Shown here: in pieces, positions 24,086 to 32,294 of the stretch
Layout: each line of letters begins with the position of its first letter
Position numbering within the stretch: position 1 is the first letter of the stretch
Assembly: GCF_057098645.1 (NCBI RefSeq)
Contig: NZ_CM169472.1
DNA: 64,000 nt
Strand: one strand, 5' to 3'
The notes under the pieces: model-generated
The model's database searches: none
What the model saw: the letters and a program-made list of their open reading frames with translations, nothing else
What the model was told of the DNA's origin: nothing
Program-made: the position numbers and the translations under genes

Positions 24086-24871
24086 TTAAATCTCTACGTC
24101 GCGGTTACAATCTTTCGAGTAAATATAGCTGAACGCTTCACCACGCCCTACGCCATAACCAGCCTGTAAAGAATAAGCGCCCATAAAGATGTAATCGCCT
24201 TTTTTCACCGGGATCCAGTTATTGTCGAGGTTATAAACCCCCTGACCGGAAAGAATATAGGCACCGTGTTCCTGAACGTGTGTTTCGATATAACCATGGC
24301 TGGCACCTGGTGCAAAAGAGAGGATATGCATGTTCATATCAAAACCTAACTCTTTGGGCAGAAAATCCAGCAGGATCACATCATCCATACCTTCATAGTG
24401 AATGCGTTCCAGTTCGCTGGCATTGCCAGAAACCAGCCACGGTGCATGGCCTTCTACCGGAACATAGCGGCGCTTATATAAAAAGATTTGGCTGTCTTCG
24501 GCCTGGGCGTTAACAAACGTCATTAAGGAGCCAGGCGGGCAATAAAGATAGCCACCTTCACTTAAGGCAAATGTTTTGCCTTCGGCTTTGGCAGTGATAT
24601 TTCCAGAGATCACATACAGGAACGTTTCAATGCCTTCGCCACCGAAGCCCTGTTGGTTGCCACCGTTTTGATGCAGTGTGACCAGATAATCAACAAAAGA
24701 GGCACCCAGCTTTGGCGTGGAGAGGATTGTCGCGTCACAATTTTCAAAGCCCGGAATAATATTTTTTACCAGACCGTCTGGTGTTAACAGTGCGAAATTA
24801 CCGTGTTTCACAATCGCACGGTTAGCCAGTAAATCATCGCGGTAACCGGTGACGTTATTTAAATATCCCAT
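24086..24871 (-). CDS. allE: (S)-ureidoglycine aminohydrolase (cupin)
   Basis: 261 aa; position matches AllE (YlbA). Confidence 0.85.
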   Translation of the reverse strand: MGYLNNVTGYRDDLLANRAIVKHGNFALLTPDGLVKNIIPGFENCDATILSTPKLGASFVDYLVTLHQNGGNQQGFGGEGIETFLYVISGNITAKAEGKTFALSEGGYLYCPPGSLMTFVNAQAEDSQIFLYKRRYVPVEGHAPWLVSGNASELERIHYEGMDDVILLDFLPKELGFDMNMHILSFAPGASHGYIETHVQEHGAYILSGQGVYNLDNNWIPVKKGDYIFMGAYSLQAGYGVGRGEAFSYIYSKDCNRDVEI

Positions 24872-24881
24872 TTATGACTCC

Positions 24882-26117
24882 TTATTTCTGCCAGGCAAGT
24901 TGATAAAGCATGAGTGCCAACGTTTTGACCCCTTCGGCAAGGTCGGTAATATTGGTGCGTTCTGCCGGGTTATGGCTGATCCCGTTGATGCTGGGAATGA
25001 AAATCATGCAGGTCGGCACGCGAGGCGCGAAAATTTGTGCGTCGTGCCCGGCACCACTGTGCATCACCCGGTAATTCAGTTTTTCGCTTTCACACAATTC
25101 TGTCAGGGTGGCGACCAGGTCCTTATTCATCGGCACCGGTTCTTCGTCCATCCATAAATCGATATCAATACCAATGTCCATTTCATCGCAAATCGCCCGC
25201 ATGTCGTTTTCTAACTGTTGGGTGAAATCACGCAGCACGGCGGCGTCGGTATGACGACAATCAATGGTGAACGTGGTTTTACCCGGCACCACATTCACCG
25301 TATTCGGGCGCGGCTCTACTTTCCCAAAGGTCAGCACCAGCGGGTCGCCCATCTTTTTCGCTTTTTCGATCGCCTGATGGCAAATGCGACTGAAAGCGTA
25401 AACCGTATCACGACGATAACCCATCGGCGTGGTGCCTGCATGGTTTGATTCGCCGTTCAGCGTCACCGTATAGCGACGTTGCCCGACAATTGCATTCACC
25501 ACGCCAATTGATTGCCCATTACTTTCCAGCACACAGCCCTGTTCGATATGCAGTTCGACAAAGGCTTTAATATCCTGACGCGGAGTTAGCGGGGCGTCCG
25601 GCAGAGTAAATCCGCAAGCCTTCATCGCATCGACAAAACTATTTCCTTTGGCATCACAGATATTCCGCACGTCGTCAGGATTCGCCAGTCCAAAGATATT
25701 TTTACTGCCCCAGAAAACATACGGGAAGCGGCTGCCTTCTTCTTCCGCCATCGCCACCACTTCAACCGTACGCAGCGGTGCGCCGTATTGAGTTTTCAGC
25801 CTGTCAATTGCCAGCCACGCCGCCAGCGCGCCGAATTGCCCGTCGAGGTTACCGCCGTTAACCACGGTATCGATATGCGAACCGCTCAGAACCACTTCCT
25901 GTGGATATTCGGTGCCACTCAGGCGACCGTATAAATTCCCCACTTCATCGAAACGTGTTTCCAGCCCACTTGCGGCCATTCTTTTTTTAAATTGCTGCTG
26001 GGTTTCCAGCCATTCCGGCGAATAAAGTAAACGGGTCATCCCACCCGTTGGGTCAGCGCCAAATGAGGAAAGCCAGGGCAGCGCTTCTTCTATGGCTTGA
26101 CGAAAATGTGTAATCAT
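24882..26117 (-). CDS. allC: Allantoate amidohydrolase
   Basis: Start at MITHFRQAIEE gives 411 aa; M20 peptidase family. Confidence 0.85.
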   Translation of the reverse strand: MITHFRQAIEEALPWLSSFGADPTGGMTRLLYSPEWLETQQQFKKRMAASGLETRFDEVGNLYGRLSGTEYPQEVVLSGSHIDTVVNGGNLDGQFGALAAWLAIDRLKTQYGAPLRTVEVVAMAEEEGSRFPYVFWGSKNIFGLANPDDVRNICDAKGNSFVDAMKACGFTLPDAPLTPRQDIKAFVELHIEQGCVLESNGQSIGVVNAIVGQRRYTVTLNGESNHAGTTPMGYRRDTVYAFSRICHQAIEKAKKMGDPLVLTFGKVEPRPNTVNVVPGKTTFTIDCRHTDAAVLRDFTQQLENDMRAICDEMDIGIDIDLWMDEEPVPMNKDLVATLTELCESEKLNYRVMHSGAGHDAQIFAPRVPTCMIFIPSINGISHNPAERTNITDLAEGVKTLALMLYQLAWQK

Positions 26118-26138
26118 AAGAAAGTCCTGTCTCAATAA

Positions 26139-27188
26139 TTATTGCGCAAAGGGATTTTTCGTTTCGTATGACGTGTTATAAAGCGCGTCGGAAATTAAAT
26201 ACTGGTAAATATCATCAACAATTTCGATGCCTTCGACGGCGGCTTTGCGTTGTTTAATATCCTGATCCTGTCCGGGATAATAAACCTGATTTAAACCGGG
26301 CGCGGGGGTAATGGCATTTAATTCGCGCATGGTCTGGCTAAGATGTTGACGGAATAATTCGCTGGAGGAGAAAAAGTTCGGGTTAATAACTACATGTAAT
26401 TGCCCCAAATTACGCCCGGCGTGTAAATCGTCATACATCGAACTAACCTGTCGCCCGAACGGTAAGCCGAGTAAGACGCCTGAGAGGACGTCAATCATCA
26501 TCATCAGGCCATACCCTTTCGGCCCGGCTGCGGGGAGCAGAGCATGTACCGCGAACGGATCGGTTGTTGGTGCACCGTTTTTATCGACCGCCCAGGTATC
26601 CGGGATAGACATATTACGCGAGCGGGCGTCGAGCACTTTTCCCCATGCCTGTACGGTAGTCGCCATATCAAAGGTAAGGATCTCGTCGCCTTCTCCCGGC
26701 GCGGCAAAGGCCAGTGGGTTAGTACCGTAGTAAATTTCCGCGCCGCCAAACGGCACCACCATCGGATCGGACTGGCACATCGAAATGCCAATTAATCCGG
26801 CGCGGGCTGCCTGCTGCACAAAATAAGAGATTGCGCCGCTGTGACCCATCCGGCTGATACCGACCACCGCAACGCCATTTTGCTGGGCGGTTTTGATGGC
26901 ATGTTCCATACCCATTTTCGCCGCGACCTGTCCGGCGGCATTGTCGGCATGTAAAATTGCCGAGCACGGCCCGGTTTCCTCAAGACGAAACTCCGGTTCG
27001 CGGTTGGTGCCGCCTTTTGAAATGCGTTCCGCGTAGTATTCCACGCGCACCGCGTCATGAGAGTGGATCCCTCTGGCATCGGCGTAAACCAATACTTCAG
27101 CCACGGTTGCAGCGTGCTCACGTTTTAACCCAGCCTGGCAGAGTTTATTCTCAATTAGCTGGTGGAGTGTTTCCCGACTGATTTTCAT
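26139..27188 (-). CDS. allD: Ureidoglycolate dehydrogenase
   Basis: 349 aa; position matches AllD. Confidence 0.85.
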   Translation of the reverse strand: MKISRETLHQLIENKLCQAGLKREHAATVAEVLVYADARGIHSHDAVRVEYYAERISKGGTNREPEFRLEETGPCSAILHADNAAGQVAAKMGMEHAIKTAQQNGVAVVGISRMGHSGAISYFVQQAARAGLIGISMCQSDPMVVPFGGAEIYYGTNPLAFAAPGEGDEILTFDMATTVQAWGKVLDARSRNMSIPDTWAVDKNGAPTTDPFAVHALLPAAGPKGYGLMMMIDVLSGVLLGLPFGRQVSSMYDDLHAGRNLGQLHVVINPNFFSSSELFRQHLSQTMRELNAITPAPGLNQVYYPGQDQDIKQRKAAVEGIEIVDDIYQYLISDALYNTSYETKNPFAQ

Positions 27189-27505
27189 CTGTCTTCCTTT
27201 TTAACGACGGTGTGAAGCATGACTGCAATTAACATACAGGGAAAATATCTGGATTATGTGATCCAGACAGGCAAAAAAATATAGTTAGAATTTATTTGAT
27301 AATCTTCGCGCTTTTAACCTGGTTGTTTAAAACAACCATGCTTATTAAAAAATAACGCGTAATAGTCTGGCGGTTATTTGAATTCTTTTGTTAATAATCC
27401 CTGTGTGATATTCATCACCTTATTTACTCGTTGTCATCGATACCGTAATCGCCACATTAACACTGCTCGTGCAATTGCCATGGGTGCAATTTTTAAGGAG
27501 TTGTT

Positions 27506-29173
27506 ATGATCCACGCCTTTATTAAAAAAGGGTGTTTTCAGGATTCGGTCAGTTTAATGATTATTTCACGAAAACTCAGCGAATCAGAAAATGTTGATGA
27601 TGTTTCCGTAATGATGGGTACGCCCGCCAATAAAGCGTTATTAGATACCACAGGTTTCTGGCATGACGATTTTAATAACGCCACGCCGAACGATATTTGC
27701 GTGGCAATTCGTAGCGAAGCGGCGGATGCGGGGATCGCGCAGGCGATTATGCAGCAGCTTGAAGAGGCGCTAAAACAACTGGCGCAGGGGTCAGGCAGCA
27801 GCCAGGCGTTGACGCAGGTGCGTCGCTGGGACAGTGCCTGTCAGAAATTACCCGATGCCAATCTGGCGCTGATTTCAGTGGCTGGCGAGTATGCGGCGGA
27901 GCTGGCGAATCAGGCGCTGGATCGCAACCTCAACGTGATGATGTTCTCCGATAACGTTACGCTGGAAGATGAAATCCAACTTAAAACCCGCGCGCGGGAA
28001 AAAGGCTTGCTGGTGATGGGGCCAGACTGCGGTACGTCGATGATTGCCGCCACGCCGCTGGCTTTTGCTAACGTGATGCCGGAAGGCAATATTGGCGTCA
28101 TTGGCGCTTCCGGTACCGGGATTCAGGAGCTGTGTTCGCAGATTGCGCTGGCAGGGGAGGGAATTACTCACGCGATTGGCCTTGGCGGGCGCGACCTCAG
28201 CCGTGAAGTGGGCGGCATCAGTGCGCTAACAGCGCTGGAAATGCTCAGTGCAGACGAGAAAAGCGAAGTGCTGGCATTTGTTTCAAAACCACCTGCCGAT
28301 GCTGTGCGTCTGAAAATTGTTAATGCCATGAAAGCAACCGGCAAACCGACGGTGGCGCTGTTTTTAGGTTATACCCCGGCGGTGGCCCGCGACGAGAATG
28401 TCTGGTTTGCCTCCTCGCTGGATGAGGCCGCACGCCTGGCTTGCCTGCTTTCACGCGTTACGGCGCGACGTAACGCGATAACGCCTGCCAGCAGCGGATT
28501 TATTTGCGGTTTGTATACCGGCGGTACGCTGGCTGCCGAAGCGGCGGGATTACTTGCCGGACACCTTGGCGTGGAAGCCGATGATGCCCATCATCACGGC
28601 ATGATGCTCGACGCCGATGGTCACCAGATTATTGACCTCGGCGATGATTTCTACACCGTCGGGCGTCCCCATCCGATGATCGACCCAACCTTACGCAACC
28701 AGTTAATTACCGATCTCGGCGCTAAACCGCAAGTGCGTGTGCTGCTGCTTGATGTCGTGATTGGCTTCGGTGCGACCGCCGATCCTGCCGCCTCGCTGGT
28801 AAGCGCCTGGCAAAAAGCCTGTGCTGCGCGTTCAGACAATCAACCACTGTATGCCATTGCCACGGTGACAGGCACTGAACGTGACCCGCAATGCCGCTCG
28901 CAGCAAATCGCCAAGCTGGAAGATGCGGGGATTGCGGTCGTGAGTTCGCTACCGGAAGCCACCTTGCTGGCGGCAGCGTTAATTCATCCGCTCTCGCCTG
29001 CCGCACAGCAACACACACCGTCATTACTGGAAAACGTCGCCGTGATTAACATCGGATTACGCAGTTTTGCGCTGGAGCTACAAAGCGCCAGCAAACCGGT
29101 TGTGCATTACCAATGGTCGCCAGTCGCCGGCGGCAATAAAAAACTGGCTCGTTTATTAGAACGTTTGCAATAA
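27506..29173 (+). CDS. fdrA: FdrA, CoA-ligase-like subunit of the oxamate carbamoyltransferase operon
   Basis: 555 aa; position matches FdrA. Confidence 0.85.
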   Translation: MIHAFIKKGCFQDSVSLMIISRKLSESENVDDVSVMMGTPANKALLDTTGFWHDDFNNATPNDICVAIRSEAADAGIAQAIMQQLEEALKQLAQGSGSSQALTQVRRWDSACQKLPDANLALISVAGEYAAELANQALDRNLNVMMFSDNVTLEDEIQLKTRAREKGLLVMGPDCGTSMIAATPLAFANVMPEGNIGVIGASGTGIQELCSQIALAGEGITHAIGLGGRDLSREVGGISALTALEMLSADEKSEVLAFVSKPPADAVRLKIVNAMKATGKPTVALFLGYTPAVARDENVWFASSLDEAARLACLLSRVTARRNAITPASSGFICGLYTGGTLAAEAAGLLAGHLGVEADDAHHHGMMLDADGHQIIDLGDDFYTVGRPHPMIDPTLRNQLITDLGAKPQVRVLLLDVVIGFGATADPAASLVSAWQKACAARSDNQPLYAIATVTGTERDPQCRSQQIAKLEDAGIAVVSSLPEATLLAAALIHPLSPAAQQHTPSLLENVAVINIGLRSFALELQSASKPVVHYQWSPVAGGNKKLARLLERLQ

Positions 29174-29182
29174 GGGGTTCCC

Positions 29183-30442
29183 ATGTTTACATCAGTGGCG
29201 CAAGCCAATGCTGCGGTTATCGAACAAATTCGTCGCGCTCGTCCACACTGGCTGGATGTGCAACCGGCTTCTTCACTTATCAGCGAACTAAACCAGGGCA
29301 AAACACTGCTTCACGCCGGGCCGCCAATGCGCTGGCAGGAGATGACCGGACCCATGAAAGGGGCGTGCGTGGGCGCATGTCTGTTCGAAGGTTGGGCGAA
29401 AGATGAAGCGCAGGCGCTGGCAATACTGGAGCAGGGGGAAGTGAACTTCATTCCTTGTCACCATGTGAATGCCGTCGGGCCAATGGGCGGTATTACTTCT
29501 GCCAGTATGCCGATGCTGGTGGTCGAGAACGTGACCGACGGCAACCGGGCGTACTGCAACCTCAACGAAGGTATCGGCAAAGTGATGCGTTTTGGCGCTT
29601 ACGGCGAAGATGTCCTGACTCGCCATCGCTGGATGCGCGATGTGTTAATGCCAGTATTAAGCGCGGCGCTGGGGCGCATGGAGCGCGGTATCGATCTCAC
29701 GGCAATGATGGCGCAGGGCATTACGATGGGCGATGAGTTCCATCAACGCAATATTGCTTCCTCAGCACTGTTAATGCGTACGCTGGCCCCACAAATTGCT
29801 CGCCTCGATCATGATAAACAGCACATTGCGGAAGTGATGGATTTCCTCAGCGTGACCGATCAGTTCTTCCTCAACCTCGCGATGGCTTACTGCAAGGCGG
29901 CGATGGATGCTGGCGCGATGATCCGCGCAGGCAGCATCGTCACGGCAATGACCCGCAACGGCAATATGTTCGGGATTCGGGTAAGCGGGCTGGGCGAACG
30001 CTGGTTTACTGCGCCTGTAAACACTCCGCAAGGTCTGTTTTTCACCGGCTTCTCGCAGGAGCAGGCGAACCCGGATATGGGCGATAGCGCGATTACCGAA
30101 ACCTTTGGTATCGGAGGTGCGGCAATGATCGCAGCGCCTGGCGTAACGCGCTTTGTCGGTGCGGGTGGCATGGAAGCGGCCAGGGCGGTATCTGAAGAGA
30201 TGGCGGAAATTTACCTTGAACGCAATATGCAGTTGCAGATCCCAAGCTGGGATTTTCAGGGCGCGTGCCTGGGGCTGGATATTCGTCGCGTGGTAGAAAC
30301 CGGCATTACGCCACTCATCAATACCGGTATCGCCCATAAAGAGGCGGGGATCGGGCAGATTGGCGCAGGCACCGTGCGGGCACCGCTGGCGTGCTTTGAA
30401 CAGGCGCTGGAAGCACTGGCTGAAAGCATGGGGATTGGTTGA
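29183..30442 (+). CDS. ylbE: YlbE (DUF1116), apparently intact
   Basis: Uninterrupted 419-aa ORF. Confidence 0.8.
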
Positions 30443-30452
30443 GGAACGCGCA

Positions 30453-31268
30453 ATGACGATCATCCATCCTCTGCTTGCCAGTAGTAGCGCACCGAATTAT
30501 CGCCAGTCCTGGCGGTTAGCGGGAGTGTGGCGGCGGGCGATTAACCTGATGACGGAAAGCGGCGAACTGTTAACGCTGCATCGTCAGGGTAGTGGTTTCG
30601 GCCCTGGAGGATGGGTGCTTCGCCGCGCTCAATTCGATGCGTTATGCGGTGGATTATGCGGCAATGAACGACCACAGGTTGTGGCTCAAGGGATTCGCCT
30701 CGGGCGTTTTACGGTTAAACAGCCACAGCGTTATTGTTTGCTGCGTATTACGCCGCCTGCGCATCCTCAACCGCTTGCAGCTGCATGGATGCAACGCGCG
30801 GAGGAAACCGGGCTTTTCGGGCCACTGGCGTTGGCGGCAAGCGATCCGCTGCCTGCTGAGTTACGCCAGTTTCGTCACTGTTTTCAGGCCGCGCTCAATG
30901 GCGTTAAGACCGACTGGCGGCACTGGCTGGGTAAAGGCCCCGGATTAACGCCGAGTCATGATGACACGCTGAGCGGAATGCTGCTGGCGGCCTGGTATTA
31001 TGGCGCTTTAGATGCGCGCTCCGGTCGTCCGTTTTTTGCCTGTTCCGACAATCTGCAACTCGTTACCACAGCGGTGAGCGTCAGTTATTTACGTTATGCC
31101 GCGCAAGGATATTTCGCCTCGCCACTCCTGCACTTTGTTCATGCTCTGAGTTGCCCGAAACGTACCGCTGTTGCGATTGATTCGCTGCTGGCGCTGGGGC
31201 ATACGTCAGGGGCAGATACACTGCTGGGGTTCTGGCTTGGTCAACAATTATTACAAGGAAAACCATGA
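30453..31268 (+). CDS. ylbF: YlbF (DUF2877)
   Basis: Start at MTIIHPLL gives 271 aa; the longer 302-aa track ORF overlaps ylbE and is probably an upstream extension. Confidence 0.75.
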
Positions 31269-32158
31269 AAACACTGGTTGTAGCTCTTGGGGGCAATGCC
31301 TTGCTTCAGCGCGGTGAGGCGCTGACGGCAGAAAATCAATATCGCAATATCGCCAGTGCTGTACCCGCGCTGGCGCGCCTGGCCCGTTCTTATCGGCTGG
31401 CGATTGTTCACGGCAACGGGCCGCAGGTGGGGCTGCTGGCATTGCAGAATCTGGCGTGGAAAGAGGTAGAACCGTATCCGCTGGATGTGCTGGTGGCAGA
31501 AAGTCAGGGGATGATTGGCTATATGCTGGCGCAGAGTTTGAGCGCACAGCCGCAGATGCCGCCCGTGACGACGGTGCTGACGCGCATTGAGGTTTCGCCT
31601 GATGATCCGGCGTTTTTGCAGCCAGAGAAATTTATTGGTCCGGTTTATCAGCCAGAAGAACAAGAGGCACTGGAAGCGGCTTACGGCTGGCAGATGAAAC
31701 GTGATGGTAAATATTTACGCCGGGTGGTGGCGTCTCCGCAACCGCGTAAAATTCTCGACAGCGAAGCCATCGAGTTGTTGCTCAAAGAGGGGCATGTGGT
31801 GATTTGCAGTGGCGGCGGCGGTGTGCCTGTGACGGATGACGGAGCAGGGAGTGAAGCAGTGATTGATAAAGATCTCGCCGCTGCGTTGCTCGCCGAGCAG
31901 ATTAATGCAGATGGACTGGTGATCCTCACCGATGCTGATGCGGTATATGAAAACTGGGGAACGCCGCAGCAACGCGCCATTCGCCATGCCACACCGGATG
32001 AGTTAGCGCCATTTGCCAAAGCCGATGGTTCGATGGGGCCGAAGGTAACGGCGGTGAGTGGTTATGTCAGAAGCCGTGGTAAACCCGCGTGGATTGGGGC
32101 GTTATCGCGAATTGAAGAGACGCTGGCGGGAGAAGCGGGGACCTGTATTTCGCTGTAG
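31265..32158 (+). CDS. ybcF: Carbamate kinase-like protein
   Basis: 297 aa amino-acid-kinase fold; 4-nt overlap with ylbF. Confidence 0.85.
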
Positions 32159-32189
32159 TGATGAGAGCATCCGGCAATCGGCGCACCAT

Positions 32190-32275
32190 GCCTGATGCGA
32201 CGCTTGACGCGTCTTATCAGGCCTACAATGGGTACCGGAGCGGTAAGTCGGATAAGGCGTTCACGCCGCATCCGG
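32190..32275. repeat. REP/BIME palindromic repeats
   Basis: gcctgatgcgacgcttgacgcgtcttatcaggcctac ... ggataaggcgttcacgccgcatccggc. Confidence 0.6.
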
Positions 32276-32294
32276 CAATCAAATGAGCACCTGC

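Follow-up and report, generated by a model that had tools for sequence, protein, structure and literature searches.

The allFGHK operon around ylbE (allG) in an Escherichia coli chromosome and the source of a K-12 'pseudogene' annotation

The allFGHK locus and its surroundings

At the centre of the locus is ylbE, also named allG, the second of four genes that follow one another on the plus strand of the window, by which we mean the whole 64,000-nucleotide stretch of DNA analysed here (Table 1). In the list of open reading frames and its translation, ylbE reads from ATG to TGA over 419 codons with zero internal stops, so that the uninterrupted 419-codon frame described in an earlier note on this DNA is there as described. 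The product matches the Pfam family PF06545 ('AllG') at 326.7 bits, against a gathering cutoff of 27, with positions 1–215 of the 215-position profile covered. Formerly known as DUF1116, this family now carries the name 'Oxamate carbamoyltransferase subunit AllG'.

Table 1 Features of the allantoin locus in the window
Feature	Position	Strand	Remarks
allE-allC-allD, divergent operon supplying ureidoglycolate and oxalurate (AllFGH substrate)	24086..27188	-	three intact ORFs
allD-allF (fdrA) divergent intergenic regulatory region	27189..27505	.	aligned to MG1655
allF (fdrA), oxamic transcarbamylase subunit related to succinyl-CoA synthetase alpha chain	27506..29173	+	555 aa, intact ORF
allG (ylbE), oxamic transcarbamylase subunit	29183..30442	+	419 aa, intact ORF, Pfam PF06545
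run of five G (ylbE nt 252-256)	29434..29438	+	four G in W3110 record and, by published position, U00096.2
allH (ylbF), oxamic transcarbamylase subunit	30453..31268	+	271 aa, intact ORF
allK (ybcF), catabolic carbamate kinase	31265..32158	+	297 aa, intact ORF

Flanking ylbE are fdrA (allF) on the upstream side and ylbF (allH) and ybcF (allK) on the downstream side. The order allF–allG–allH–allK on a single strand, with every member intact and the divergent allDCE genes adjoining, is the layout of an operon, and the complete fdrA-ylbE-ylbF-ybcF operon proposed earlier is present with all four reading frames uninterrupted. Shine-Dalgarno-like sequences precede each start codon (AAGGAG, AAGGGG, GAGGAA and AAGGAA); for ylbF the start was taken as the annotated ATG, the longest-ORF listing beginning further upstream at a TTG. 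The description of the genes as lying on the same strand with 4-nt overlaps is right for the strand and for the ylbF/ybcF junction (ATGA, 31265–31268), but elsewhere the genes do not touch, fdrA and ylbE being 9 nt apart and ylbE and ylbF 10 nt. Terminator-like sites within allFGHK were not above the chance rate in a pattern scan of the window.

The three partner proteins are recognizable from their families. AllF comprises the Pfam CoA_binding and Ligase_CoA domains and matches the NCBIfam model PRK06091 (FdrA) at 1043.6 bits. Its counterpart in the PDB is entry 3DMY, 'Protein fdrA', with succinyl-CoA synthetase alpha chains only distantly similar; a phosphohistidine motif of the succinyl-CoA-synthetase type (GHAG) was looked for in the AllF sequence, and none was obvious. 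AllH matches Pfam PF11392 ('AllH') at 101.7 bits, and a search for PDB homologs returned none for this protein. AllK falls in the amino-acid kinase family of Pfam (AA_kinase) and scores 620.9 bits, against a cutoff of 416, with PRK09411, the NCBIfam carbamate kinase equivalog. AllG and AllH, both matched by Pfam, gave no model match in the NCBIfam search.

Upstream, and transcribed away from allF, are allD, allC and allE, named after the annotation of the near-identical strain RM12761 and encoding intact proteins of 349, 411 and 261 amino acids, respectively. The larger cluster that runs from allS to allK is intact in 17 of its 17 genes.

Because ylbE is 100% identical in nucleotide sequence to about 25 O145:H28 and O145 E. 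coli genomes, and because a 50-kb comparison with RM12761 shows few differences (18 SNPs and a 3-nt indel), the window is, to judge from these comparisons, a chromosome of the O145:H28 lineage. Strains RM12761 and RM13516 are closer to it than RM9872. Within allD (minus strand), three nucleotides at 26494–26496 of the window (ATC on the plus strand) are absent from the O145 strains RM12761 and RM9872; owing to this in-frame 3-nt indel, which is polymorphic within the lineage, AllD has 349 residues in the window, as in K-12, and 348 in those two strains.

Two further observations concern a more distant part of the window. At 45497–45620 the tRNA-Arg gene argU is followed directly by envY, ybcH and nfrA, and no prophage is present; the match with RM9872 ends at the argU tRNA (45575), where that strain carries an integrase fragment, an IS3 element and a lambdoid prophage. 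K-12 presumably has DLP12 at this same site. Interrupted by a stop at position 80 of its 253 codons, envY (45619–46380, minus strand) is a pseudogene, as it is annotated to be in RM12761.

ylbE in K-12 and the pseudogene annotation

In the current record of K-12 MG1655 (NC_000913.3), ylbE (b4572, YP_009029994.1) is an intact coding sequence of 1260 bp and 419 amino acids at 548357–549616. Pairwise alignment of this gene with that of the window gives 11 nucleotide differences and no indel, and the proteins are identical at 417 of 419 residues without gaps, the differences being E38Q and A200T. The earlier note had referred to ylbE as annotated as a frameshifted pseudogene in K-12 MG1655 and had proposed alignment with the MG1655 gene as the check; that gene turns out to be intact and of equal length, the outcome which the note itself had named as contradicting it, and the supposed contrast between the two strains is lost. 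A strain-specific repair of a K-12 pseudogene was rejected as an explanation, ylbE being undisrupted in the MG1655 reference NC_000913.3.

The agreement with MG1655 extends over the whole operon. There, fdrA (b0518), ylbE (b4572), ylbF (b0520) and ybcF (b0521) have the same order, strand, junctions and lengths (555, 419, 271 and 297 aa), with allDCE upstream and purK downstream, as in the window. AllH is 100% identical between the two, AllF 98.2%, AllG 99.5% and AllK 99.7%, which leaves 10 amino acid differences in AllF and one in AllK. Outside the coding sequences, the window differs from MG1655 within the AllS region of the promoter, where there is a variable patch (described below), and in the spacer between ybcF and purK (32159–32294), which has 136 nt in the window and 194 nt in MG1655. 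As the alignment breaks within REP-like-looking sequence, the window spacer probably has one repeat unit fewer.

Across the species, and in K-12 too, ylbE is normally intact. Of 5426 complete E. coli genomes, 5420 have a match to the gene, with 97–100% identity, and in 5417 the match reaches a coverage of at least 80%. Natural disruptions of the operon do occur in E. coli but are rare, and are represented by the records NZ_CP029741.1, NZ_CP047277.1 and NZ_CM129037.1: among these three, one has a truncated match that spans only nt 822–1260 of ylbE, one has a frameshifted fdrA, and another has an IS1 in the intergenic region upstream of fdrA.

A frameshifted version of the gene is found in the RefSeq record of K-12 W3110 (NC_007779.1, 547581–548839), where ylbE has 1259 bp and is annotated 'frameshifted'. 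In a three-way alignment that includes the window, this version differs from the ylbE of NC_000913.3 at exactly two sites, a synonymous A/G at nt 114 and the run of five G at nt 252–256, which is one G short, so that the frame shifts after codon 85. The locus in U00096.2 and in the W3110 record is otherwise the same, with essentially the same sequence: four G stand there, and five in the window and in current MG1655. This one missing G is the whole basis of the annotation of ylbE as a frameshifted pseudogene.

Expressed in the old numbering, the two W3110 differences lie at 547,694 and 547,831, equal to sites published for U00096.2. A 2017 paper lists, against this old MG1655 reference, the changes 547,694 A>G and 547,831 +G under 'ylbE (pseudogene)', and describes the two changes as turning the pseudogene into a viable ORF (PMC5460176); in a 2011 paper, a frameshift in the K-12 strain NCM3722 is said to have 'restored an intact ancestral gene' (PMC3045373). 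According to the part of the EcoGene article that deals with the reference sequence, two groups reported minor errors in U00096.2, EcoGene confirmed them, and correction was planned in U00096.3, with ylbE not named in that part (PMC3531124). The corresponding part of an EcoCyc article gives 2013 as the year in which the MG1655 record was updated, and it, too, leaves ylbE unnamed (PMC5210515). It is the comparison of the records themselves that places the two ylbE sites among the U00096.2 corrections.

Could the frameshift be genuine? In that case slippage in the run of five G would have truly inactivated ylbE in K-12, or at least in the W3110 sub-lineage, and the intact copy in the window would mark a real metabolic difference from laboratory K-12. 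Homopolymer runs are prone to slippage, which speaks for such an event. The W3110 RefSeq record, which keeps its 1259-bp gene and the flag on it, points the same way, as do the older papers in which ylbE is treated as an MG1655 pseudogene 'restored' by mutations (PMC3045373, PMC5460176). Against a genuine frameshift stands the intact ylbE of NC_000913.3, together with the confirmation of U00096.2 errors, slated for correction, in the EcoGene passage cited above.

The distribution of the allele argues against it as well. With the W3110 version of ylbE as the query, four records are identical, namely W3110 and three MG1655-derived assemblies (strains CIT, LIM and CAR; NZ_CP026026/27/28), in all of which ylbE is one base short. 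The other K-12 derivatives among the matches listed, which include several MG1655 re-sequences, DH5alpha, DH1, C600, J53, NCM3722 and AG100, align with the W3110 query over 1260 bp with one gap. Dozens of independently sequenced K-12 derivatives have the 1260-bp ylbE. A 76-nt probe placed across the run and containing four G matches 5 of 5417 records at an identity of at least 99%, the remainder aligning over 77 nt. Overall, the frameshifted allele is present in only 4–5 of about 5,417 complete E. coli records, and each record that could be identified is a K-12 sequence, either a legacy one or one derived from the reference.

Apart from W3110, the records that retain the frameshift are confined to those with coordinates and length like those of U00096.2. 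In CIT, LIM and CAR the coordinates of ylbE equal the old U00096.2 numbering, and one of these genomes has 4,639,673 bp, which we take to be about the size of U00096.2; the pattern fits reference-guided assemblies. Since so few records have the four-G allele, and since the gene has 1260 bp in the other K-12 derivatives, the frameshift is best regarded as a legacy artefact and not as a property of K-12, and the frameshifted ylbE of W3110 is apparently an old sequence error that was left uncorrected and was handed down by reference-guided assembly.

Published genetics bears on the same point. Deletion of allG in MG1655 abolishes the formation of oxamate, and the AllFGH enzyme is active when its genes are cloned from MG1655 DNA (PMC11326118). 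As a pseudogene could yield neither this deletion phenotype nor an active cloned enzyme, ylbE is not a pseudogene in MG1655. A real K-12 pseudogene was rejected because of the sequence in NC_000913.3, the distribution of the allele and these genetic results for MG1655, and we consider inactivation of ylbE by slippage in K-12 or W3110 very unlikely.

The explanation that best accounts for the observations, and in which, taken as a whole, we have high confidence, has two parts. The gene in the window is allG (ylbE), which stands second in an operon conserved in E. coli, allFGHK (fdrA-ylbE-ylbF-ybcF), and the 'K-12 ylbE pseudogene' is a one-base undercount in the G5 homopolymer of a Sanger-era reference, the evidence for this second part consisting of secondary sources and the allele distribution. 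The published 'mutations restoring ylbE' are then simply the true sequence. The U00096.2 artefact lives on in the RefSeq sequence of W3110, in a small number of assemblies guided by the reference and in common belief about K-12, and such received K-12 annotation, when used as the baseline, leads to false contrasts in genome scans.

Variation in the allD–allF promoter region

The 317-bp intergenic stretch that separates allD from allF is identical to that of K-12 except for a patch at about 27305–27371, which contains 11 substitutions and one indel. In an alignment of nine strains, about 15 of some 23 variable columns fall within a 68-column patch, with flanks that are almost invariant. A 141-bp segment spanning the patch is 91–100% identical to the window across the species, compared with 97–100% for ylbE. 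The patch overlaps, by position only, the fragment used in AllS electrophoretic mobility shift assays (EMSA) and the predicted AllS site; the coordinates of the AllS fragment were taken from Figs 3 and 6 of PMC12535856 and placed on the window by arithmetic. Located within the patch is a perfect 8+8 inverted repeat, TGGTTGTT-TAA-AACAACCA (27320–27338), which is completed by an extra G in the lineage of the window (O145:H28) and is degenerate without it.

With the reading frame intact, the oxamate branch might still behave differently in this lineage, through the substitutions in AllG and AllF or through a changed AllS operator. The replacements E38Q and A200T in AllG and the 10 substitutions in AllF relative to K-12 could have such an effect, and so could the 12 differences from K-12 in the patch, among them the extra G that makes the inverted repeat perfect near the predicted AllS site. 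However, AllG positions 38 and 200 also vary in comparison with a distant homolog, PDB 3CLQ (a gap or E region at 38 and Ala at 200), the window AllG allele is shared, as a fixed allele, by more than 25 O145 genomes, and none of the 17 genes of the cluster has a frameshift or stop. The promoter patch, moreover, is polymorphic across all of E. coli, with conservation of the palindrome core, save for the extra G, and of the intergenic sequence outside the patch. A lineage-specific change in the behaviour of the oxamate branch is thus extremely unlikely in our estimate.

Expression of allFGHK could differ from that in K-12 because the AllS-binding promoter region differs at 11 substitutions and one indel. 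The extra G of the lineage, in particular, may alter the affinity for AllS and so give rise to heritable differences between strains in the induction of allDCE and allFGHK, an effect to which we assign only a small chance. If real, it would represent regulatory micro-evolution of anaerobic nitrogen scavenging from allantoin, as distinct from the presence or absence of ylbE.

The oxamate branch and its relation to known enzymes

The activities encoded by allFGHK have been established in MG1655 (Kim & Kim 2022, 2024). Mutants deleted for allF, allG or allH no longer convert allantoin to oxamate unless complemented from plasmids; the purified AllF-AllG-AllH enzyme catalyses the reaction of oxamate with carbamoyl phosphate, for which all three subunits are required, with Km values of 1.3 mM for carbamoyl phosphate and 36.9 mM for oxamate (PMC11326118). 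The full reaction is oxalurate + Pi <-> oxamate + carbamoyl phosphate (PMC11326118). Purified YbcF (AllK) of MG1655 is a carbamate kinase, and RT-PCR across every junction shows that allFGHK is co-transcribed (PMC9843812). Expression of the operon in MG1655 needs anaerobiosis and allantoin, and it depends on two activators, AllS and ArcA, for each of which EMSA shows binding to the allF promoter (PMC12535856). The earlier assignment of these genes to an oxamate carbamoyltransferase/carbamate kinase branch of anaerobic allantoin catabolism was correct, and the word 'putative' that accompanied it can be dropped for MG1655 (PMC11326118, PMC9843812).

Because the window proteins are 98–100% identical to the K-12 proteins that were tested, and because the cluster from allS to allK is intact, we infer that they perform the same pathway. 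Allantoin would be converted to ureidoglycolate by AllB, AllC and AllE, and ureidoglycolate to oxalurate by AllD. AllF, AllG and AllH, acting together as oxamic transcarbamylase, would then turn oxalurate and phosphate into oxamate and carbamoyl phosphate, and AllK would transfer the phosphate of carbamoyl phosphate to ADP, yielding ATP, NH3 and CO2. The four genes would be expressed as a single mRNA from the allD–allF intergenic region, activated by AllS in response to allantoin and by ArcA in response to anaerobiosis.

Published work already covers the gene and its operon as well as the enzyme activities and the regulators, and allFGHK is an ordinary operon of the core genome. With an intact ylbE in virtually all E. 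coli genomes, that of K-12 among them, the biological importance of its presence in the window is low.

Among proteins of known structure, AllG has a full-length homolog in PDB 3CLQ, a structural genomics entry for the DUF1116/AllG family, with residues 2–414 aligned at E = 2.7e-111. The depositors gave it no function, and it was solved alone, without AllF or AllH partners. With the classical transcarbamylases, namely ATCase (PyrB), OTCase (ArgI/ArgF) and YgeW, the AllFGH enzyme shares the type of reaction, in which a carbamoyl group is moved reversibly to or from carbamoyl phosphate, but the two kinds of enzyme have no sequence similarity (PMC11326118). Unlike the classical transcarbamylases, AllFGH is built from three different subunits, one of which is related to the alpha chain of succinyl-CoA synthetase.
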